DNA of 49,172 nucleotides from a virus: IMG/VR virus record IMGVR_UViG_3300017963_000082; one strand, 5' to 3'. Both the position numbers and the translations under genes were made by a program. The notes below the pieces were generated by a model, which worked only from the letters and a program-made list of their open reading frames with translations, did no database searches and was not told the DNA's origin. Within the stretch, counting starts at the first letter, position 1, and every line of letters starts with the position of its first letter. Positions 4,580 through 41,200 of this stretch are shown here, piece after piece.

Positions 4580-5091
4580 TATGAGCCATCCAGGGCGATC
4601 ACAGTTCGGTTGCCATTGACCGTCACAGTTGCGGCGATCCGGTCCTTTGTGTCCCCCACATCGCGGAATGCCACCGACGCTGTGCCCCCACCGGTAGACA
4701 GGCCAGCAAGTGCTGCTAACAGAATGCGCACGATTTCCTTGTGCGTCAGCGTCCCCTCGTACACCTCGCTGGAATGCAGCAGGTCATCGACGGTTCGCAC
4801 GGTCGTGCGGAATGTCAGCGACACATCGTCCCAATCCCCGCCAGCCTGATCGATCGCTCGAATGGAAATAGAGACGCCGTTCGTCTCCGCCTGGGATAGC
4901 TGTACGCGCACCTGACCGCCAGCCGCAGGCGTCACGGTCGGCAACGTGGCAAGGTTAGCAAACGCCCCACCGTCGATGCTGATCTGGAAATCACCAGCGG
5001 CAATGGTCGGCGTCAGGTTGATGTCCGCACCGCTGAACAGGAAAAAGTAGACCTCCTGCCCTGCTGTGTTTCTAGCGATCGGTACACTCAT
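4579..5091 (-). CDS. Hypothetical structural protein.
   Basis: A 170-aa beta-rich ORF in the late operon, with its stop coupled to the next gene. Confidence 0.55.
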   Translation of the reverse strand: MSVPIARNTAGQEVYFFLFSGADINLTPTIAAGDFQISIDGGAFANLATLPTVTPAAGGQVRVQLSQAETNGVSISIRAIDQAGGDWDDVSLTFRTTVRTVDDLLHSSEVYEGTLTHKEIVRILLAALAGLSTGGGTASVAFRDVGDTKDRIAATVTVNGNRTVIALDGS

Positions 5092-22552: not shown

Positions 22553-22729
22553 CTATGCGGGGGTTTCCTGTTTCGCCTTCCCCTTCCTATACTGTGGGCA
22601 GCCCTTGCGGTCAAAGCTACCGCGGCACTGGCTCACGAGCGCGGTACAGTTCAGGCAGATATTGATCTCCCGCTGCTTGGGGTTGTAGTTCAGCCGCGGC
22701 GTGGTCGTAGTCTTGGGTTTGGGGGTCAT
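22553..22729 (-). CDS. Small basic Cys-rich protein (58 aa), positioned where a late-gene regulator would be expected.
   Basis: It is not in the ORF track (<60 aa). The ATG at 22727..22729 overlaps the methylase TGA (ATGA), with the SD GGAGGTG upstream. The sequence is MTPKPKTTTTPRLNYNPKQREINICLNCTALVSQCRGSFDRKGCPQYRKGKAKQETPA. Confidence 0.5.
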   Translation of the reverse strand: MTPKPKTTTTPRLNYNPKQREINICLNCTALVSQCRGSFDRKGCPQYRKGKAKQETPA

Positions 22730-23400
22730 CGTAGCACCTCCGTGAAAAGTGACATCTGGGCGACGCGCTTGACGGCGATCTCGCAGTTGTGCTCTAAAAT
22801 GTCAATGCCGATCACGTGGTAGCCCAGTTCGACCGCCGCTTCCAGTGTTGAGCCGCTGCCCATGTACGGATCAAGGATCACGCCCTGCGGTTCGATCTGG
22901 TCAATGCACCATTTCATCAATGCAACGGGCTTTTGGTGCGGGTGTAGCTTTCCTCCGTTGGTGACGTTCTCTCTACCTGCCCGCATAATGCCGCGCCACA
23001 AGTGGGTAAACATTCGCACTGGTGCATCCATGTTCGTCCATGCCAGTTCACAGTCGGACTGTTGGCACGGCGTTTTTCCCGCCAACTTGTCCCACACAAG
23101 CCATCCGCTTTGATCAGGTAGGCGTGAGGCATAATACTGCGCTCCCCACAGGACCACACGCCGAAATCCTAGCCACGGCGACGGATCAAACGGCTGATCA
23201 TCGCCCACTATCGGCGCGAAATTGCCGTCCTTGCGTATCATATCGCAATCGCCGCGCCCGCTGTTGTGGTTACTCACGTATCCTTTGCCCCACGGCGGAT
23301 CGGTCACGATTGAATCGATGGGCGGCAATTCAGGGAGGATCTGCAGACAATCCCCATAGTACACCGTAACCCCTTCCCGCTCATAGTACGGCGTGATCAC
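22726..23400 (-). CDS. DNA methyltransferase, N4/N6 (N6_N4_Mtase-like).
   Basis: Contains SIVTDPPWGKGY and ILDPYMGSGSTLEAAVELG. Start set at the GTG 23398..23400, which overlaps the upstream TGA. Confidence 0.8.
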   Translation of the reverse strand: MITPYYEREGVTVYYGDCLQILPELPPIDSIVTDPPWGKGYVSNHNSGRGDCDMIRKDGNFAPIVGDDQPFDPSPWLGFRRVVLWGAQYYASRLPDQSGWLVWDKLAGKTPCQQSDCELAWTNMDAPVRMFTHLWRGIMRAGRENVTNGGKLHPHQKPVALMKWCIDQIEPQGVILDPYMGSGSTLEAAVELGYHVIGIDILEHNCEIAVKRVAQMSLFTEVLR

Positions 23401-23675
23401 CCGTCCCTCCTCACCGCAGCCAGCACCTGATCCGCCTCGCGTTTCATCACCCACACCTGTACAATGTTCGCATCGCCTGCCGCGTCGGGATACCTGTCCA
23501 CCGCGTCCGCCAGGACCAGGACAATGCGGTTCATCCCGGTCATCATCATAGCCCAGCGGCTTTGCAGGTCGCCCAGGGCCGCACATTTGCAAAAGCACAT
23601 CATCAGCACCCCGAGTCCGCTAAAGACGATCGCGGTGAGGACGACTAGGATGAAACAGTGCGTGGTGGTGATCAT
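23397..23675 (-). CDS. Small membrane protein.
   Basis: The ATG at 23673..23675 overlaps the Dam-like stop (ATGA), with the SD GGAGGGA upstream. The N-terminal TM segment is MITTTHCFILVVLTAIVFSGLGVLMMCF. Confidence 0.5.
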   Translation of the reverse strand: MITTTHCFILVVLTAIVFSGLGVLMMCFCKCAALGDLQSRWAMMMTGMNRIVLVLADAVDRYPDAAGDANIVQVWVMKREADQVLAAVRRDG

Positions 23676-24532
23676 GGTATTCCCTCCATTGTCATCTGTT
23701 CCGGTTTCGCCAGTGCCTCGACGGTGCGCGGGGACAACCACAGAGACTCAATCCGCTTGCCGCCGCTGTTTGTTTGTGCCTCTTTGTCCACACGATGCCA
23801 CCCGTGGTCCTCGTACAGTTCGGTGTAGAGGGGGCAGGCGTAGCCACTGACGACGACGTAGCCGGCGCACAGTTTCAGCAGTTCCGCGCATTCCTGGTGA
23901 AACGACCGGGAAACCTCAAGCCGATAAATATCGGCTTGCGATCGCGTTTCCGGCAAGTAGGGCGGGTCAAAGTAGATCAAGGCGTCCGCGTTGTCGTACC
24001 GCTGGATCACGTCTTGCGCGTCACGGTTTTCAGTTTGAACTAACCGTAACCGCTCGGCGCAACTCTCCAATATGCCCTCAATCCCCACCCAGTTAGATGA
24101 TCCTGTGACACAATAAAATGTTGCGACTCGCCATGTCTTACTTGTCTTACTGTGGTGCCCTCCCTGCATCGACATCCAAGATGCCACAAAGAACCGCCGC
24201 GCCCGCTCCACCTCATCCTCGCACGGCTCAAGGCTCAATTCATACTCTGCCCTAGCCCACGGCGTCAACCGTATCTTTCGGATCAGTTCGTCCGGTTGAT
24301 CGCGCAGCACCCGAAAGAAGTTGACCACGTTCCCGTCGAGGTCGTTGTACGTCTCAAGCGGTGATCGTGGCTTCTGCAGCAACACGGACGCAGCACCCCC
24401 GCACGGCTCTACATAGTTCTGGTGCTCTGGGAAGTGAGAAATGATCCACGGTGCCAGTCGCCACTTGCCGCCATAGTAGCGCAGCGCCGGCCGCTTTGGT
24501 GCGTCTCGTGCTATGATCACCCTCTCCTCCAT
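23672..24532 (-). CDS. Dam-like (D12-class) N6-adenine DNA methyltransferase.
   Basis: Contains LRYYGGKWRLAPWIISHFP...YVEPCGGAASVLL...IYFDPPYL. The start is uncertain (ATG 24532 or GTG 24520), and the track ORF extends to 24694. Confidence 0.8.
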   Translation of the reverse strand: MEERVIIARDAPKRPALRYYGGKWRLAPWIISHFPEHQNYVEPCGGAASVLLQKPRSPLETYNDLDGNVVNFFRVLRDQPDELIRKIRLTPWARAEYELSLEPCEDEVERARRFFVASWMSMQGGHHSKTSKTWRVATFYCVTGSSNWVGIEGILESCAERLRLVQTENRDAQDVIQRYDNADALIYFDPPYLPETRSQADIYRLEVSRSFHQECAELLKLCAGYVVVSGYACPLYTELYEDHGWHRVDKEAQTNSGGKRIESLWLSPRTVEALAKPEQMTMEGIP

Positions 24533-24639
24533 TTCCTCCGGGTGGGGGCGTTCCGATCCATTCCACCCCCACCCTATAACGCGCCGGTTTCGGATGCACT
24601 GCCTGACCTCTACTCTCTCGGCTATGCCCGGCGCGTTGA

Positions 24640-24942
24640 CTACACTCTCCCAAACCAGCGCAGAACATCCTCGAGACCAGATGCAACGATACAACAGTCC
24701 GCGTGGTATTTGGTCATATAGTATTCAGCCACGGTCATATCATCCTTTAGTCCAGGCGGCTTGACCTCTACCATTACCATCGCCTCGCGTCCTAGTGGTA
24801 TGCTATACCCGATCACCAGTATGTCCAGCACCTTCCCGCCTACATTGTGTATATCCAGCACGCACAGTCCAGCATCGCGCAAGTCCTGCATTAGCTGCGC
24901 CTGGTTCGCGTCGGGTTTCGTGTGGCGCGGGCGTGCGGTCAT
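24640..24942 (-). CDS. VRR-NUC / PD-(D/E)xK-type nuclease-like protein.
   Basis: A 100-aa ORF with KPDANQAQLMQDLRDAGLCV...VLDILVIG...AMVMVEVKPPG (D...EVK motif). Confidence 0.55.
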   Translation of the reverse strand: MTARPRHTKPDANQAQLMQDLRDAGLCVLDIHNVGGKVLDILVIGYSIPLGREAMVMVEVKPPGLKDDMTVAEYYMTKYHADCCIVASGLEDVLRWFGRV

Positions 24943-25106
24943 TGGGCGCTGTCCTCCACTTCGATCTGCCAGAGGGCGTGATCAAGGCCTGCGTGGGCAG
25001 CATTATCGTTTTCCACCACGAACCGCGCCTCCTCAATCAACTGATACACTAGTCCCGCGTCCGCCTTGGTTGTCATTCCCGCCTGGATTCTCTCTACCAG
25101 TGTCAT
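24939..25106 (-). CDS. Small hypothetical protein (55 aa).
   Basis: It is not in the ORF track. The SD GGAGGAG lies 4 nt upstream of the ATG at 25104..25106, and its stop overlaps the next ATG (ATGA). The sequence is MTLVERIQAGMTTKADAGLVYQLIEEARFVVENDNAAHAGLDHALWQIEVEDSAQ. Confidence 0.45.
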   Translation of the reverse strand: MTLVERIQAGMTTKADAGLVYQLIEEARFVVENDNAAHAGLDHALWQIEVEDSAQ

Positions 25107-25107
25107 T

Positions 25108-25821
25108 TCACTCCTCCTGTGCCGCTGCGATCGCGCGGACGTCGCCCCGCAGCTCTACCAGCTTGCCCTCACGCATCCGTGAATACAGGTAGCCCAGCGC
25201 CTCCTCTGGTGGTAGCGATCGCGTAGGGTCGTCGTTCGTGGCGAACAGCGTCAGATGCCCATCCTTGCGGCGGTAACGTGTGTCCACCAGTTCGAACAGC
25301 TTCTCGCGGCTCCACTCGGTAGCGTTGAACCGTGTTACCTCGTCGATCGCCAGAACAGGCACGGCCAGCAATTGTTCCCAATAGCGGCTCGTGTTCTCGT
25401 GGCGTCCGTAAAGCATCCGCAGGTGCTCGAGAATGCGGGACATTGGTTCATAGACGCCCTGGACGTTCTCGGCGCGTACCTCGTTGACCACGATCTGCAG
25501 GGCCAGCGACTTGCCCGCTCCGAAGTCACCCCAAAAGGTGTAAAAGCCCTTTTTGTACTCGATCGCGCACTGGATCACCGTCTTGGCCTGCCTCCGCTGT
25601 ACCTGCATTTTCGGCTCGAGTGCTGGTATGCGCCAGTCCTTGAGGGTGTGCGCCTGCTCCCTCTCCTCGAGTCCTGACCGTCGGGCCATCGCCGCTTGTT
25701 GTTCCTCAGTCGCACACCGGGGGCACGGGCGGATCATATCCTTGATGTCTCGCTGCCCTGCACCTACCTTGTCATCGTTCACCAGGTAGCCTAGGCCTCT
25801 GCATATACACGGTTCACTCAT
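25108..25821 (-). CDS. DnaC/IstB-like AAA+ helicase loader.
   Basis: The Walker A motif is GDFGAGKSLA and the Walker B motif is VLAIDEV. The N-terminus has Cys pairs (CICRG...CPRC). Confidence 0.72.
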   Translation of the reverse strand: MSEPCICRGLGYLVNDDKVGAGQRDIKDMIRPCPRCATEEQQAAMARRSGLEEREQAHTLKDWRIPALEPKMQVQRRQAKTVIQCAIEYKKGFYTFWGDFGAGKSLALQIVVNEVRAENVQGVYEPMSRILEHLRMLYGRHENTSRYWEQLLAVPVLAIDEVTRFNATEWSREKLFELVDTRYRRKDGHLTLFATNDDPTRSLPPEEALGYLYSRMREGKLVELRGDVRAIAAAQEE

Positions 25822-26656
25822 CGTCTATCCATCCTGTCGCTAGTGGCACTTCTTGCACGGGTTCCGGTTGGCGTCCGTTGCCGTTGTTGCGGGGACGTTT
25901 CGGTATGCCGTCCCTGAACCAGTCGAGCATACCCGTGATGTTGCGCGGCTTGTAACCAGCCGCAAGCCAAGCGTTGATCGTCGCCTTCCACTTGTCCAGG
26001 GCGCGCGGCTCAGTGCCTACTGCGTGGTGAATGTCTGCCGCTATGTTCCAATTAGGCACGGTTGCATCCGTGAGGTCGCCCCAGACCTTGACCGACGGTG
26101 GCGGGTTGTATCTGTCATAGACGAAACGCTCACCGGGCGCGGGCGCTTCTGTCTCTCTCTCTGTCTCTGTATCTGCTTCTGTCTCTGTATCTGTCTCTGG
26201 TCCGTTACAGTCACGTTTCTGTAACGTTTCTGTAACGTTACATTGTAGCGTTTCCTCGCTGTTACTTGGCCGTTCCTCTTGGGCTTTTTTCCGTGCTCTG
26301 TGTGCTCTTACGCGGGGGGTACTGTTGTCGCTTTCGTATTGGCGCGTTTGCCAGTTTGTGCAGGTCAGGGTATTTCCCTCAAGGTGTAGCATTCCCAAGT
26401 TCTGGAATGTGTCGATCAATTGCTGCACGATCTCGAGATCCATTTCCAGATCGTCCGCTATGTCCTCAACCGTCACCGGCACACTTACAGCCCACAGCAG
26501 ACGCCCACGCTCGGGCGAGTCGTTTGCCATAGCCAAAAGTGTTAGCCAGGTACCGCGCACCTCTACCCGTTTGCAGCCGGTGATCCGACAAATGCGGGTC
26601 AACTTGCGGTCTGATAGGATCTCACTGTACACTCTGAACCACGGATACTCACCCAT
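25814..26656 (-). CDS. Phage replisome organiser / replication initiator-like protein.
   Basis: The N-terminal domain is YPWFRVYSEILSDRKLTRI...WLTLLAMAND. The acidic TETE/TETLQ central linker is encoded by the direct repeats at 26146..26255. It lies upstream of the DnaC-like gene. Confidence 0.6.
   Translation of the reverse strand: MGEYPWFRVYSEILSDRKLTRICRITGCKRVEVRGTWLTLLAMANDSPERGRLLWAVSVPVTVEDIADDLEMDLEIVQQLIDTFQNLGMLHLEGNTLTCTNWQTRQYESDNSTPRVRAHRARKKAQEERPSNSEETLQCNVTETLQKRDCNGPETDTETEADTETERETEAPAPGERFVYDRYNPPPSVKVWGDLTDATVPNWNIAADIHHAVGTEPRALDKWKATINAWLAAGYKPRNITGMLDWFRDGIPKRPRNNGNGRQPEPVQEVPLATGWIDDE
26146..26255. repeat. Iteron-like direct and inverted repeats inside the organiser gene, a candidate origin.
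   Basis: tctgtctctgtatctg occurs at 26160 and 26178 (18-bp period), with a partial copy at 26146. cgtttctgtaa occurs at 26214 and 26225 (11-bp period). The palindrome tgtaacgttaca lies at 26231..26242, and gttacag/ctgtaac at 26204/26219. Confidence 0.55.
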
Positions 26657-27167
26657 TCAACAACTCCATTCCTGCCTGCTCTGGGGTTCTACCACCTTTG
26701 GACTTATTGCAATGTTCACAGGCTGCTACGAGGTTGCTAAACTCATCCGAACCACCTTGACATCTTGGGATCACATGGTCAACTTGAATCGCTGGGGCTC
26801 TGCAGTATCGGCACGTATAATGATCCCGCTCTAGTACAGCACGGCGCCGCAATTCCCAGTCGGGAGCACGCGCATAAGGATCAGGACCACAAGCGAACCG
26901 CTCAAAGTTTGGGATCGTGATACCTGGAGGGGGAGTCAATAGCCCGATCTTAACGAGTTGATCCAACACACGCCCCAAATCTTCCTCGCTCGTATTGAGC
27001 CTCTTAGCGGTAACATACCACGAAGGCAATGCGCCGTCTTGGGCTATCTGCTCTGCAGTGACTAGAATGATCTCTACCCACCGCCGCCATAGGTGATCAT
27101 CGAGTCGTGCCACTTTGGGATCGTCCAACATCTCGATCCACAGTTTCGCCCAGTAGTTAGATGCCAT
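26649..27167 (-). CDS. Organiser-like N-terminal domain fused to an HNH endonuclease.
   Basis: Start set at the ATG 27165..27167 (SD GAGGA). The N-terminus NYWAKLWIEMLDDPKVARL parallels 25814..26656. The C-terminus is HYTCRYCRAPAIQVDHVIPRCQGGSDEFSNLVAACEHCNKSKG. Confidence 0.78.
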   Translation of the reverse strand: MASNYWAKLWIEMLDDPKVARLDDHLWRRWVEIILVTAEQIAQDGALPSWYVTAKRLNTSEEDLGRVLDQLVKIGLLTPPPGITIPNFERFACGPDPYARAPDWELRRRAVLERDHYTCRYCRAPAIQVDHVIPRCQGGSDEFSNLVAACEHCNKSKGGRTPEQAGMELLNG

Positions 27168-27175
27168 AACGTCCT

Positions 27176-27727
27176 CTAGTTGTATCCGTATGGGTTGCAC
27201 TCTGCGACTTGTAGAAACAGGTTGCCAGAACCGCCCGCCTCTCTCTCGCCGCCCTTATAGTCACATTTCACTTGGATCACAATGTCGTCTTTGGTCAGAC
27301 TTCCAGACTTGATGATAATATCGGCACCCCGGATCTGTATATCCTTGTCCGTTATGCCCGTTGGCATCGCCGGAATAGGGAACAGACCGCGCTTGATCAT
27401 TTGTAGAACCAGACGCTCTGCCTTTTTCCCCTTGACGGTCAAATGATCCGTCTCTGAGAAGCGCAGATAATCCCACACCTCAGACCGCACAGACAACGCC
27501 ACGCACTCTTTGATCTCGAATGGAGGCACCAAATAGCCGCTGGCCGTTGCCGTCTCAATTCCCTTTTGGTATCCGTTGACCTTGCGAAACAGTCCGCTAT
27601 GGATCGCCTCTATGCCTCGCCTGGTCGGATATACATAGAGCTTTTCCACAACAGGGCAGACATGAACGCGCAAATGACTATTCTCTGTCTGTATGCCGTG
27701 ATCAATTAGAGACGTGTTGCCCGGCAT
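27176..27727 (-). CDS. PD-(D/E)xK-like nuclease-fold protein (putative).
   Basis: Contains KGKKAERLVLQMIKRG...GADIIIKSG...DIVIQVKCD (an E...D...QxK arrangement). The start is uncertain (27727 or 27733), and it overlaps the end of the methylase gene. Confidence 0.4.
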   Translation of the reverse strand: MPGNTSLIDHGIQTENSHLRVHVCPVVEKLYVYPTRRGIEAIHSGLFRKVNGYQKGIETATASGYLVPPFEIKECVALSVRSEVWDYLRFSETDHLTVKGKKAERLVLQMIKRGLFPIPAMPTGITDKDIQIRGADIIIKSGSLTKDDIVIQVKCDYKGGEREAGGSGNLFLQVAECNPYGYN

Positions 27728-28832
27728 TCTCATTCCCCCAGGTATCCCATCCATCTGCGGTTGTCCGTGAGAACAACTCTATGCGTTGCCCGTGCGGATA
27801 TATCGTGTCTATGATCTCTCTGAATCGTTCCGGCTTCTCAGAGTGAACGTCTGACCGCTCGATCGTCTGAACGCTATCAAAGAGCTTTTGCACATCTGGC
27901 GTGCAGCTCCCGCGAGTGCAGATCAATAGCATCTCATGGCGCACACTGTTGTAATGCCCATAGTTGTGCCGCACCTTGTCCCACACAAACGAGGTCTTGT
28001 ACTTGAACCCCCACGACTTGATCAGGGGGAAACAGTCCTCGAGTAGTGGAGACGTGACCCACAAAAACAGTACGGCGTCTTTTGTGCAGCGCTCTTTGAT
28101 CTCTGTCCCCATAAGGCAAAGATCAGCCAGGCTCATAGGTGGATAATGTCGCTCGACGTGGCCGTAGTTGTCAGACTCACCGATCACGCCGCTGTTGCCA
28201 TATTCCCACGGGGGATCGGCGTACCATATGCGGTACTTGTCATCTGGCAGAGGGGGCGGATCTTGTTTTTGTCGGCGGGTGAGTTCGCGTCGAGCTTGGG
28301 GTATGGACTTCTCGCCGTTACGGACCTGCTCGAGTAGATCGGGGGCGTGCTGCTGTAGGCTCTTTGCGTCTTGGACATAGCGGGGATTAGTCTGAAAGAG
28401 TGCGGCGGCTTTTTCGCGGGCTTCCCCCATCTCACATTCCGGTATTATTTCCGCAATGTCAGTCCGTGTGCCTTGTCGGGCTTTTGCTTCCTTTTCTAGC
28501 ATCGGCAAAGCGTCTAGACTGATCGTCGCCCGCTGGCTGCTGCTCAAATGTCTCCTGTGCAAGTTCAAACTCACCACAAACGAGACGAGCGATCCGCCAT
28601 TGTTCCACGTTCTGAATCGTGGCTCTGTGTGCGTCTCTATGCACGCCCGGTGGCGGTTGCGCCCGTCGATAATACTCCCGTCCGGATGTAGCCAGATCGC
28701 CTCAAGTAGGCCATTCTCTGCTATGTCCTCTTTGAGCTGGTCAAAGTCTGGACCCTCGAGCAGCGGGAATAACTGTGCTACCGGGTGATACTTGCGATCG
28801 ATCTCTGCGTCCCAGTTAGTCATCGCCGCCAC
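27702..28832 (-). CDS. ParB-like N-terminal domain fused to an MT-A70-family adenine DNA methyltransferase.
   Basis: Contains LLEAIWLHPDGSIIDGRNRHRAC (ParB/Srx-like) and IWYADPPWEYGNSG...HYPPM...LFLWVT (MT-A70-like). Confidence 0.78.
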   Translation of the reverse strand: MAAMTNWDAEIDRKYHPVAQLFPLLEGPDFDQLKEDIAENGLLEAIWLHPDGSIIDGRNRHRACIETHTEPRFRTWNNGGSLVSFVVSLNLHRRHLSSSQRATISLDALPMLEKEAKARQGTRTDIAEIIPECEMGEAREKAAALFQTNPRYVQDAKSLQQHAPDLLEQVRNGEKSIPQARRELTRRQKQDPPPLPDDKYRIWYADPPWEYGNSGVIGESDNYGHVERHYPPMSLADLCLMGTEIKERCTKDAVLFLWVTSPLLEDCFPLIKSWGFKYKTSFVWDKVRHNYGHYNSVRHEMLLICTRGSCTPDVQKLFDSVQTIERSDVHSEKPERFREIIDTIYPHGQRIELFSRTTADGWDTWGNENAGQHVSN

Positions 28833-30896: not shown

Positions 30897-31246
30897 GTTG
30901 CACCTCCTGTATACGTGAAAACGGTGTACCGTCTTGCTGCCGAAAGTGCCCGCGCATAGACTCAAGCCAGGGCAGACCGCCGGGGTCAGTATTTCCCGCT
31001 TCGACATCTCCCTGGTCATTCCTATTCTCACCCACCCACCCGTCAGTCTATGCGCAGGCTATGAAACGGTGCGGGCCAGATTCCCCACCTGGCTCCAACG
31101 AAAGAGCTTTCCCAAAAGCATTTCCGCCTCTTGGCAGTCGGCATCAGCCTGCTTGTGGCCCTTGCCCTTTCCTGCACTCCACACTTGGTCCCTTACCACC
31201 CGCTGCCACGGGTCCGCACCGTTATCAACTTGTCAATGTGCTGCTA

Positions 31247-31353
31247 GGGAGACCGGCGGGACTCGAACCCGCGCATACCATCTCTGACGTATCCGTATCA
31301 CCGGAGGCCAGTTAATCCCGGGCCGGCTGCTCTGCCACTGAGCTACGGTCTCC
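31247..31353 (-). tRNA. tRNA-like gene with canonical acceptor, D and T arms but an oversized anticodon/variable region. The isotype is undetermined.
   Basis: The minus strand reads G-GAGACCG-TA-GCTC-AGTGGCA-GAGC-A-[55 nt]-GCGGG-TTCGAGT-CCCGC-CGGTCTC-C. U8, A14, G18G19, A21, T54-A58 and G53:C61 are all in place, and no CCA is encoded. Confidence 0.5.
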
Positions 31354-31358
31354 GTAGT

Positions 31359-31403
31359 GCCTCGTGTGCCTTAGAAGTCGGCTGGCCAGGCCGCACACGA
31401 GGC
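31359..31403. other. Perfect 11-bp inverted repeat (stem-loop) 5 nt upstream of the tRNA-like gene.
   Basis: gcctcgtgtgc (31359..31369) pairs with gcacacgaggc (31393..31403), with a 23-nt loop. No U-tract follows. Confidence 0.6.
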
Positions 31404-31439
31404 GTGGATGGCCTAGACGATCCAAAAGTGCATCAGCAC

Positions 31440-31577
31440 CACGACCGCGACCACGACCCCGACCGCGACCCCGACCGCGACCGCGACCGCGACCCCGACC
31501 GCGACCCCGACCGCGACCCCGACCGCGACCGCGACCACGACCGCGACCACGACCGCGACCACGACCGCGACCCCGAC
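31440..31577. repeat. Tandem hexanucleotide repeat (CNCGAC) x 23, 138 bp.
   Basis: Counted directly, N = a,g,a,c,g,c,g,g,g,c,g,c,g,c,g,g,a,g,a,g,a,g,c. There are no interruptions. Confidence 0.95.
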
Positions 31578-31608
31578 CAGTCGTATCCAGTCCGTGCGAT
31601 CGCTGCGT

Positions 31609-31962
31609 TCATTTCTGCGTCCTTGGGATCTTGATCTCCCATAGCTGTGCATCAACAATCGATCCGCGCCCAATGACCACAGGTCCGTCTACAGGTTCGC
31701 ACTCGTCTGGACCGTTGCTGAAAAAGTCCGAGAAACGCCCGGTATCAGCGATCCACGTCGCGTCCTCAAGCACCAATTCCTGGTTGCTGACGGACACAAG
31801 CCGACCGATCCAGTAGTTCGTCACGGTTCGGATGTGATATGCCTGTCCGAGTTTCCAAGGGCCCGGATCGCTGGTGACGTTCCCTGCTAACAATGCGGCA
31901 AGTTCTGCCAAGTTCGCGTCTGGAAAACGCTCTGCCAACACTACCAACTCGTTACAGTCCAT
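31609..31962 (-). CDS. Hypothetical protein (117 aa).
   Basis: Start set at the ATG 31960..31962 with the SD AAAGGAGAAAATGAG. The sequence begins MDCNELVVLAERFPDANLAEL.... The longer track ORF (to 32217) overlaps the upstream gene. Confidence 0.58.
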   Translation of the reverse strand: MDCNELVVLAERFPDANLAELAALLAGNVTSDPGPWKLGQAYHIRTVTNYWIGRLVSVSNQELVLEDATWIADTGRFSDFFSNGPDECEPVDGPVVIGRGSIVDAQLWEIKIPRTQK

Positions 31963-40292: not shown

Positions 40293-40499
40293 ATGTATTG
40301 TCAACTTTGTGGAAAGCTGATATACACGATCGGCGGCCTGTGCAAAGAGTGCTCACCTGAGCTACATCGCAAATGGGAGGAACGACGCGAGGCGGTCAAT
40401 GCCCTCTGTGATGAGTACGAGGCAGAAACAGGGATCAGTGCTCTCGCAAACTGGACAGCATTTGAGGACTGGTGTACAGAAAAGGAGGCGATGGGGTGA
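40293..40499 (+). CDS. Small zinc-ribbon protein.
   Basis: A 68-aa ORF, MYCQLCGKLIYTIGGLCKECSP..., with the SD GGAGGGG upstream. Confidence 0.55.
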   Translation: MYCQLCGKLIYTIGGLCKECSPELHRKWEERREAVNALCDEYEAETGISALANWTAFEDWCTEKEAMG

Positions 40500-41200
40500 T
40501 AGACCACCTCGGTCCGTACCTGCTAGGCCCAAACGACACGCCCGAGAACGGGATATACACGGGCGATGCGCGGGAACTGGCGAAGGCGATACCGGATGAG
40601 AGTGTGGATCTTGTGTTCACGGATCCACCATATCCAAAGCAGTATGCTGGCGTGTGGCCTGTTCTCCGCATACTCGGGGAGACATTGAGGAATGGTCGCC
40701 GCCTGATGACTCTGTGCGGACATTATCAGATCCCTGAAGTGCTGGCTGTAATAGGCATATCACTCACTTATGACTGGATCATAGCAAACACAGCACCCGG
40801 TAAGACTGCGGCAATGTTTCAAAAAAGAGTATGGGCAACCTGGAAGCCGTGCCTAGTATTTAGACGGGGAACACTCGATAAGTACGCCAATTTCGCAAAT
40901 GATCTGTTCGTATCTGACAAGACGGCATTTACCCATGCAAAAGAGTTTCACCGGTGGGGTCAGGGGGCTCCGTTTTTTGCATACTACATAGATCGGTGGT
41001 CGGAACCTGGCGATATAATCGTGGATCCCTTCACCGGCGGCGGCACCGTCCCCGCTGTCTGCAAAATGCTAGGCCGCCGCTACCTCGCCTTCGAGATCGA
41101 CCCCGACACGGCACAACTAGCCCGCGACCGTGTACGTGACACACAACCACCCTTGTTTGTACCGGAACCGGAACAGCTACCGTTTGACGACGTAAGGTGA
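40496..41200 (+). CDS. DNA methyltransferase, N4/N6 (N6_N4_Mtase-like).
   Basis: Start set at the GTG 40496, in a GTGA overlap, with the SD AAAGGAGG upstream. Contains LVFTDPPYPKQY and IIVDPFTGGGTVPAVCKMLG. Confidence 0.78.
   Translation: MIDHLGPYLLGPNDTPENGIYTGDARELAKAIPDESVDLVFTDPPYPKQYAGVWPVLRILGETLRNGRRLMTLCGHYQIPEVLAVIGISLTYDWIIANTAPGKTAAMFQKRVWATWKPCLVFRRGTLDKYANFANDLFVSDKTAFTHAKEFHRWGQGAPFFAYYIDRWSEPGDIIVDPFTGGGTVPAVCKMLGRRYLAFEIDPDTAQLARDRVRDTQPPLFVPEPEQLPFDDVR

Follow-up and report, generated by a model that had tools for sequence, protein, structure and literature searches.

The 49,172-nucleotide (nt) virus record IMGVR_UViG_3300017963_000082, analysed here over its whole length and called the window below, carries on its minus strand a 107-nt gene (31353-31247, from G-1 to C74) that looks like a transfer RNA (tRNA) and cannot serve as one: its acceptor, D and T arms are fully paired, while the place of the anticodon arm and variable loop is taken by a 55-nt segment with no usable anticodon loop. 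This look-alike is best read, from its sequence, as the descendant of a histidine-type tRNA gene that no longer decodes, and it is a new, isolated member of a known, unexplained kind, the phage tRNA-like RNA without an anticodon. Together with a perfect hairpin, it makes up a 190-nt block present in this phage only. As to what the gene does, we tentatively put forward, at somewhat under an even chance, that it is a signal cut from an early transcript by ribonuclease P (RNase P), a proposal that also covers a cut that the phage merely tolerates.

A complete tRNA body

The Rfam tRNA model RF00005 matches the look-alike end to end (31352-31248), with an insert of 45 nt assigned to the anticodon arm. 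The match reaches 47.6 bits, where the gathering score is 29, and its E value of 3.5e-7 over the window puts it well outside what chance would give. This is the sole Rfam match across the 49 kb and, by Rfam and ARAGORN together, the sole tRNA-like gene. A G at position -1 lengthens the acceptor stem to 8 base pairs (bp), the strand 31353-31346 (G-1 plus 7 nt) pairing with 31255-31248 in Watson-Crick pairs throughout, G-1:C73 included. C74 stands at 31247, and CCA is not encoded, the stem strand on the C73 side being followed by C U A. After the 5′ strand of the acceptor come U8 and A9, then a D arm with a 4-bp stem and a 7-nt loop that holds G18 and G19 (31343-31329), then A26; the T arm (31272-31256) has a 5-bp G-C-rich stem closed by the loop UUCGAGU. 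In the three arms taken together, 17 of the 17 stem pairs are Watson-Crick, the tertiary and elbow bases are all present (U8, A14, G18, G19, A21, G53:C61, U54 U55 C56 and A58), and C48 (31273), the last base before the T stem, could form a Levitt pair with G15.

The departure from the tRNA plan is confined to the stretch between A26 and the T stem, where exactly 55 nt (31327-31273) stand in place of the 21-22 nt of a class I tRNA, a surplus of 33 nt. An earlier reading of the same DNA, made by a model from the letters alone (the original prediction), had described the three arms, the elbow nucleotides and the length of this segment, and each of these was borne out; the Rfam search that it proposed returned the tRNA match given above and no match to transfer-messenger RNA (tmRNA) or Y RNA.

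A segment without a decoding arm

The original prediction had also reported that the segment yielded no hairpin of the anticodon type (5-bp stem, 7-nt loop, U33, purine at 37), and had named an overlooked normal cloverleaf as what would overturn it. When every position of the segment was scanned, no hairpin with these stem and loop lengths had both U33 and a purine at 37, and default ARAGORN calls no gene at the locus; both searches being empty, a normal cloverleaf is rejected. Because a usable anticodon loop is missing, codon reading is not possible for the look-alike. The pairings picked out by eye in the prediction are all there, namely GCCGG/CCGGU enclosing 18 nt, GGCC/GGCC enclosing 11 nt and UCCG-GUGAUA-CGGA, and so is the tandem GAUACG GAUACG.

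In the minimum-free-energy fold, the 8-bp acceptor, the D arm and the T arm are retained, and the middle is predicted to form a long arm, a 7-nt linker and a weak hairpin of the variable-arm type (Table 1). One copy of GAUACG falls in the linker and the other in the hairpin, and the tandem looks like a slippage duplication. No 7-nt loop presents the triplet GUG, which is confined to the 6-nt loop of the alternative hairpin at 31305-31292. Compared like for like, with the variable hairpin left out, the fold with the GUG hairpin is 2.1 kcal/mol less stable than the fold with the long arm, and it lies 6.5 kcal/mol above the full minimum-free-energy fold. This hairpin is possibly a relic of the histidine anticodon arm. 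Of seven comparisons, only one stood out: a 15-column local alignment that sets the insert against tRNA-His of phage Lacusarx, over the variable loop and the 3′ half of its anticodon arm (13 columns identical, 1 mismatch, 1 gap), with a shuffle p of ~0.01 that is uncorrected for the seven comparisons. As evidence that a remnant of the histidine anticodon arm survives in the insert, the match is suggestive only.

Intron removal and other RNA classes

A surplus of this size could be that of a decoding tRNA interrupted by an intron of ~34 nt that is removed after transcription. The intron mode of ARAGORN, one of the checks that had been proposed, does give a 72-nt product called tRNA-Leu(CAG), whose insert of 34 nt follows position 32 and whose loop, CUCAGAG, has U33 and A37; when all single contiguous deletions restoring a 21- or 22-nt arm were tried, this was the only family of solutions. 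The solution is a weak one. Of the five positions of its anticodon stem (in order G-U, C-G, C-G, G-U, G.A), two are G-C pairs, two are G-U pairs and one is a mismatch, and the insertion site, 32/33, is non-canonical. Bacterial tRNA-Leu requires a long variable arm and A73, so the CAG anticodon is implausible in a product that has C73 and a variable loop of 4 nt. At the splice sites that ARAGORN proposes, no bulge-helix-bulge motif was found, nor was there one elsewhere that yields a tRNA, and the only tidy candidate resembling such a motif gives a 3-bp stem without U33. A group I intron is rejected, the extra 33-34 nt being too short for a core of more than 200 nt and the Rfam scan, taken to E values up to 10, containing no match to an intron, ribozyme, group I core, tmRNA, YrlA (RF02553) or other family besides tRNA. 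The host is moreover likely to be a bacterium, and hence to lack tRNA splicing enzymes, because the phage has gene signals of bacterial type, namely Shine-Dalgarno sites, a replisome organiser and a loader like DnaC/IstB, and because exact matches to the acceptor stem and T arm of the look-alike were confined to Planctomycetota and Verrucomicrobiota. Splicing to a decoding tRNA is, on these grounds, scarcely credible. Of the three options that the original prediction left standing, the small intron accordingly finds no support, and the tRNA-like non-coding RNA and the decayed tRNA both remain.

Several other classes were tried and rejected. The tmRNA mode of ARAGORN is empty. YrlA and other Y RNAs have no RF02553 match at E up to 10, and no Ro60/TROVE-like protein occurs in the open reading frames (ORFs) scanned. 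The Rfam model of mascRNA reaches 17.7 bits against a threshold of 42.5. A bacterial tRNA-Sec would agree with the possible 8+5 layout, but it would also need a 6-bp D stem, a long variable arm and a UCA anticodon; the D stem here has 4 bp, closed by 7 nt, and no 7-nt loop presents UCA. The 8-bp acceptor had been read in the prediction as that of either tRNA-His or tRNA-Sec; the first reading is supported, by G-1:C73 and by the matches to tRNA-His given below, and the second is not.

Origin of the body

The look-alike has the histidine identity pair G-1:C73, and its 3′ half, through C73 and C74, finds its best BLAST matches in annotated tRNA-His genes of unrelated phages. When the block was compared by BLAST with 401 Verrucomicrobiota genomes, one match was obtained, in a gene that ARAGORN calls tRNA-His(GTG) (L151), the nearest match to the body as a whole. 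This tRNA-His shares with the look-alike the D arm (one base shorter in the look-alike), the variable loop AUG(U)C and the T arm; 5 of the 7 acceptor pairs are shared, one is G·U there and A-U in the look-alike, and one is a compensated change. The resemblance to tRNA-His thus takes in G-1:C73, the 8-bp acceptor and its sequence, the D arm, the variable loop and the T arm, while the differences are that the look-alike has no 7-nt loop with a GUG anticodon and is 33 nt longer.

The evidence from the body is nevertheless mixed: the 3′ half is nearest to phage tRNA-His, yet the exact combination of acceptor stem and T arm sits in tRNA-Lys and tRNA-Arg. A pattern scan over one genome per species (185,579 species) found this combination in four genomes only (L128-L131), two of Verrucomicrobiota, in tRNA-Arg (UCU), and two of Planctomycetota, in tRNA-Lys (UUU). 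The body is therefore of a kind known from the Planctomycetota-Verrucomicrobiota group, which hints at the host of this uncultured phage.

Recent gain of a 190-nt block

The look-alike sits in an early operon on the minus strand, just past the stop codon of the gene for a small repeat-tailed protein, and no sigma-70-like promoter was found near it on that strand. The 50 nt upstream of it fold at -24.1 kcal/mol, a stability equalled by only 0.2% of the 50-nt stretches of the phage. Ten related loci were retrieved through the flanking 117-aa protein, and the comparison with related phages, which had likewise been proposed in the prediction, found the look-alike in none of the ten. The closest relatives by the flanking protein are L120 (90% identity) and L001 (86%); because the two are only 85% identical to each other, L001 is taken as the outgroup. 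Both pass straight from the stop codon of the repeat gene into a conserved ACAAGTTGATAACGG region, a sequence that resumes in the window at 31233, beyond the block. As the block is missing from both closest relatives, its gain was recent, and a single gain in the lineage of the window is the most economical history.

The block is bounded by imperfect direct repeats of 7 nt each, CACTTTT (31430-31424) and CACATTG (31240-31234). Flanking as they do a clean 190-nt insertion in otherwise conserved intergenic sequence, they would suit a tRNA-derived miniature mobile element, composed of the hairpin and a tRNA head with a target duplication of 6-7 bp, or a leftover tRNA-gene integration site. But no second copy was found in the window or in the public collections scanned, and the repeats are imperfect and short enough for microhomology, which makes this origin very improbable. 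No integrase, transposase or reverse transcriptase occurs among the ORFs scanned, and the idea of an attachment site is rejected for want of an integrase there.

Table 1. Features of the tRNA look-alike gene and its surroundings in the window (positions on the 49,172-nt record)
Feature	Position	Strand	Basis
tRNA look-alike gene	31247..31353	-	Rfam tRNA match, stem inspection
Acceptor stem, 5′ strand with G-1	31346..31353	-	perfect 8-bp pairing with 31255-31248; inverted repeat
D arm, 4-bp stem, 7-nt loop, G18 G19	31329..31343	-	Rfam alignment, inspection
55-nt segment in place of anticodon arm and variable loop	31273..31327	-	hairpin scan, shuffle folding
Predicted long arm: GCCGG/CCGGU, 1x3 internal loop, CCGG/CUGG, 6-nt loop GAUUAA	31300..31327	-	minimum-free-energy folds
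Alternative hairpin UCCG-GUGAUA-CGGA, GUG in 6-nt loop	31292..31305	-	pairing inspection; excludes the long arm
Tandem duplication GAUACG GAUACG	31288..31299	-	sequence
Predicted weak 'variable-arm' hairpin, 4 + 3 bp, bulge, AGA loop	31275..31292	-	predicted folds
T arm, 5 pairs, loop UUCGAGU	31256..31272	-	Rfam alignment, inspection
Acceptor stem, 3′ strand ending at discriminator C73	31248..31255	-	pairing
Perfect 11-bp hairpin, 23-nt loop, ending 5 nt before G-1	31359..31403	-	inverted-repeat scan, 100% complementary
190-nt block (hairpin and look-alike), this phage only	31241..31430	-	comparison with L001 and L120
Small protein gene, Ser/Arg/Gly/Trp repeat tail, upstream of the block	31433..31612	-	ORF
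Terminator-like hairpin and T run, ~110 nt downstream of the look-alike	31124..31137	-	sequence scan

Proposed processing of the early transcript

RNase P recognises the minihelix made of the acceptor and the T arm, and precursors of tRNA-His are cut at -1 when G-1 pairs with C73. Under the proposal favoured here, the look-alike would be transcribed, for lack of its own promoter, within the early minus-strand operon, and its intact top half would make the transcript a substrate of RNase P. The cut would fall at -1, because G-1 pairs with C73, and hence five bases after the 11-bp hairpin. Host enzymes that mature 3′ ends would then trim the product and the CCA-adding enzyme would add CCA, so that a tRNA-shaped RNA of about 106 nt is released and stays outside decoding. 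The upstream message would be left with a protective 3′ end capped by the hairpin and separated from the downstream message. The phage might benefit from the cut, as from tRNA punctuation, or it might merely tolerate it. Processing would also explain the combination of a perfect top half with a disordered middle, because only the part formed by the acceptor, T and D arms would matter for it. The anatomy of the locus, with no promoter of its own nearby and a hairpin 5 nt upstream of G-1, is consistent with such a signal. Across 92 look-alikes from IMG/VR, the regions upstream show slightly more structure than expected at random (p = 4e-4); neighbouring tRNA genes could account for the difference, and a strong upstream hairpin is not taken for a general feature of phage look-alikes.

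Several observations weigh against this proposal. The whole element is not unusually stable when folded (z = -1.55). An unstructured insert that contains a tandem duplication of 6 nt gives the impression of recent mutational damage rather than of design. The element is dispensable, because the two closest relatives lack it, and the hairpin might have come along from the donor without any connection to the gene. Lastly, for now, the element seems to be a singleton in the collections scanned: BLAST against phage and plasmid records returned generic tRNA halves only; pattern scans of IMG/VR aimed at the element found no copy and one chance match to the hairpin; pattern scans of JGI metagenomes found no copy; and a BLAST comparison of the block with 800 genomes of Planctomycetota and Verrucomicrobiota gave tRNA 3′ halves only. 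All these searches demand exact anchors or high identity, and diverged relatives can be missed by them.

Much of the same evidence suits an inert relic, that is, a tRNA-His gene whose anticodon and variable region has been wrecked by insertions, deletions and a duplication, picked up by illegitimate recombination, of no benefit to the phage and due to be lost. Its absence from sister and outgroup phages and the lack of relatives in the collections scanned would be expected of such a gene, and so would the tandem GAUACG, the 7-nt microhomology at both ends of the block, the absence of a partner protein nearby among the ORFs scanned and an insert that folds like random sequence. On the last point, the 55-nt segment alone is no more stable than its shuffles (z = +0.07), the whole 190-nt block gives z = -0.63, and the folding tests of segment, element and block against shuffles yield no sign of designed structure in the insert. 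Decay alone, however, has to account for a middle that must have taken several events to arise, since a good anticodon arm is restored by no single deletion, and for damage to 0 of the 17 stem pairs and to no conserved tertiary base outside that middle. Three random events in a 75-nt gene would all fall within its 22-nt middle with a chance of ~3%, an argument that slippage hot spots weaken, and useless DNA is rarely kept for long by phage genomes. An inert relic is the main rival reading, and in our view a rather unlikely one.

The look-alike might instead act in trans, as a CCA-ended tRNA mimic, perhaps charged with histidine through G-1:C73, that serves as a sponge or decoy for host factors reading the acceptor end or the elbow, such as tRNA-directed defence nucleases or toxins. 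Recognition by histidyl-tRNA synthetase (HisRS) rests mainly on G-1:C73, and the look-alike has the complete histidine identity set and an intact top half; many phage tRNA bodies in IMG/VR have inserts that are not anticodon arms, some families with compensatory changes, and RNA1 of phage T5 is a precedent. Because nothing in the window links the gene to defence or counter-defence, because the insert has no conserved or stable structure and because the element is a singleton, a role in trans is judged unlikely. More doubtful still is a portable RNA module that would unite the two ideas, in which a stable hairpin and a histidine-type mimic consisting of the top half only are cut apart by RNase P, leaving a protected 3′ end upstream and a decoy, which could be given CCA and charged with histidine, for host factors that target tRNA acceptor ends. 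If such a module were real, it would be a counterpart in a bacterial virus of the MALAT1/mascRNA or t-element design, spread by insertion.

Neighbouring genes and related loci

The hexamer array at 31440-31577 (23 units) is coding sequence within the minus-strand ORF 31433-31612 and not a non-coding microsatellite; the stop of the ORF stands exactly at the end of the array. This repeat gene and the 117-aa gene overlap, the ATG of the former and the TGA of the latter together forming ATGA at 31612-31609. The N-terminus of its product, MNAAIARTGYD, is kept in L001 and L120, the window and L001 differing by five synonymous changes and one non-synonymous change, and the length of the Ser/Arg/Gly/Trp tail varies among the three phages.

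More distant relatives have no tRNA-like gene at the locus, except for two with an ordinary tRNA-Leu(UAA), which lies at 3535-3620 in L134 and at 1188-1273 in L135, ~0.7 kb downstream of the homologous gene, the flanking protein being 49% identical; tRNA genes have therefore been acquired repeatedly in this early region. In the same intergenic region, L001, the closest relative from IMG/VR, carries a DUF3800-VIII RNA (RF03075) at 4671-4742, which scores 43.5 bits against a threshold of 40.2; the window has no match to this family. The motif CCCGCACCGTTTCA (31052-31091 in the window), just upstream of the DUF3800-VIII RNA of L001, is common to L001, L120 and the window. Each of the three phages has different genes downstream, so this is a mosaic junction at which small RNAs gather.

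Elsewhere in the window, the regions 22726-28832 and 40472-41200 encode at least four DNA methyltransferases (N6_N4_Mtase, Dam-like D12, MT-A70 and one other matching PHROG methyltransferase families) and an HNH endonuclease.

Relation to known tRNA-like RNAs

The nearest parallel is RNA1 of phage T5 (NC_005859, 30501-30644), annotated as a 'tRNA-like stable RNA with unknown functions'. Like the look-alike, it aligns end to end with RF00005, has an anticodon-arm insert in the same place (47 nt, against 45 nt here) and has no usable anticodon. The two share no sequence similarity, and they differ in that RNA1 is 144 nt long, has an extra 19-nt variable insert, scores 24 bits and lies within a tRNA cluster, whereas the look-alike, with 47.6 bits, stands alone as a tRNA-like gene in its phage and ends in an acceptor of histidine type; RNA1 is annotated as a stable RNA, and the look-alike is known here from sequence alone. 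Phage T4 encodes two further stable RNAs, species 1 and 2 (rnaC and rnaD), which are small, have tRNA-like ends, are processed like tRNAs and lie inside the T4 tRNA gene cluster.

YrlA and other bacterial Y RNAs resemble the look-alike in being non-decoding, in having a tRNA-like module and in occurring in phages as well; the ends of YrlA RNA lie in the Ro-binding stem, not in an acceptor stem. The proposed mode of action has its likeness in the t-elements of plant mitochondria, tRNA-like structures that define the ends of messenger RNAs (PMC1920247). These elements and MALAT1/mascRNA, like the signal proposed here, are tRNA-like sites for cutting by RNase P and RNase Z in longer transcripts; they are eukaryotic or organellar, and the processing of the look-alike is a prediction. 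The prokaryotic tRNA gene fragments and pseudo-tRNAs described in PMC9897764 are made by recombination and are mostly partial genes at integration sites, and the look-alike differs from those described there in that its two tRNA halves are complete and perfectly paired.

A loose pattern (class I D arm, 41-71 nt, T loop) is matched by more than 118 contigs of IMG/VR (L002-L119 among them). Calls made on them by the intron mode of ARAGORN are inconsistent. Several groups have conserved inserts among the matches listed: L014, L024, L042 and L102 show compensatory changes in an outer helix and an inner GNRA hairpin around a conserved AACCCGGGA...GCAC, and L002, L053, L068 and L089 have in common an insert resembling CAUGGUGAAGGACCUAAA. 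From the compensatory changes in the first of these groups, it follows that phages maintain tRNA-shaped RNAs without anticodons.

Implications

Standard tRNA finders miss the gene, and finders run in intron mode mislabel it as tRNA-Leu; annotation pipelines would therefore drop it or assign a false decoding capacity to the phage. To our knowledge, the purpose of such phage RNAs has gone unexplained since T4 and T5 were sequenced, and the look-alike adds to the growing set of anticodon-less phage tRNA shapes a case with a probable histidine-type origin and a dated insertion. Its body sequence provides, for this phage, the first host clue, which points to the Planctomycetota or Verrucomicrobiota. 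The presence of a hairpin and a predicted RNase P site on one small insert suggests the idea that some look-alikes may act as signals for cutting transcripts.

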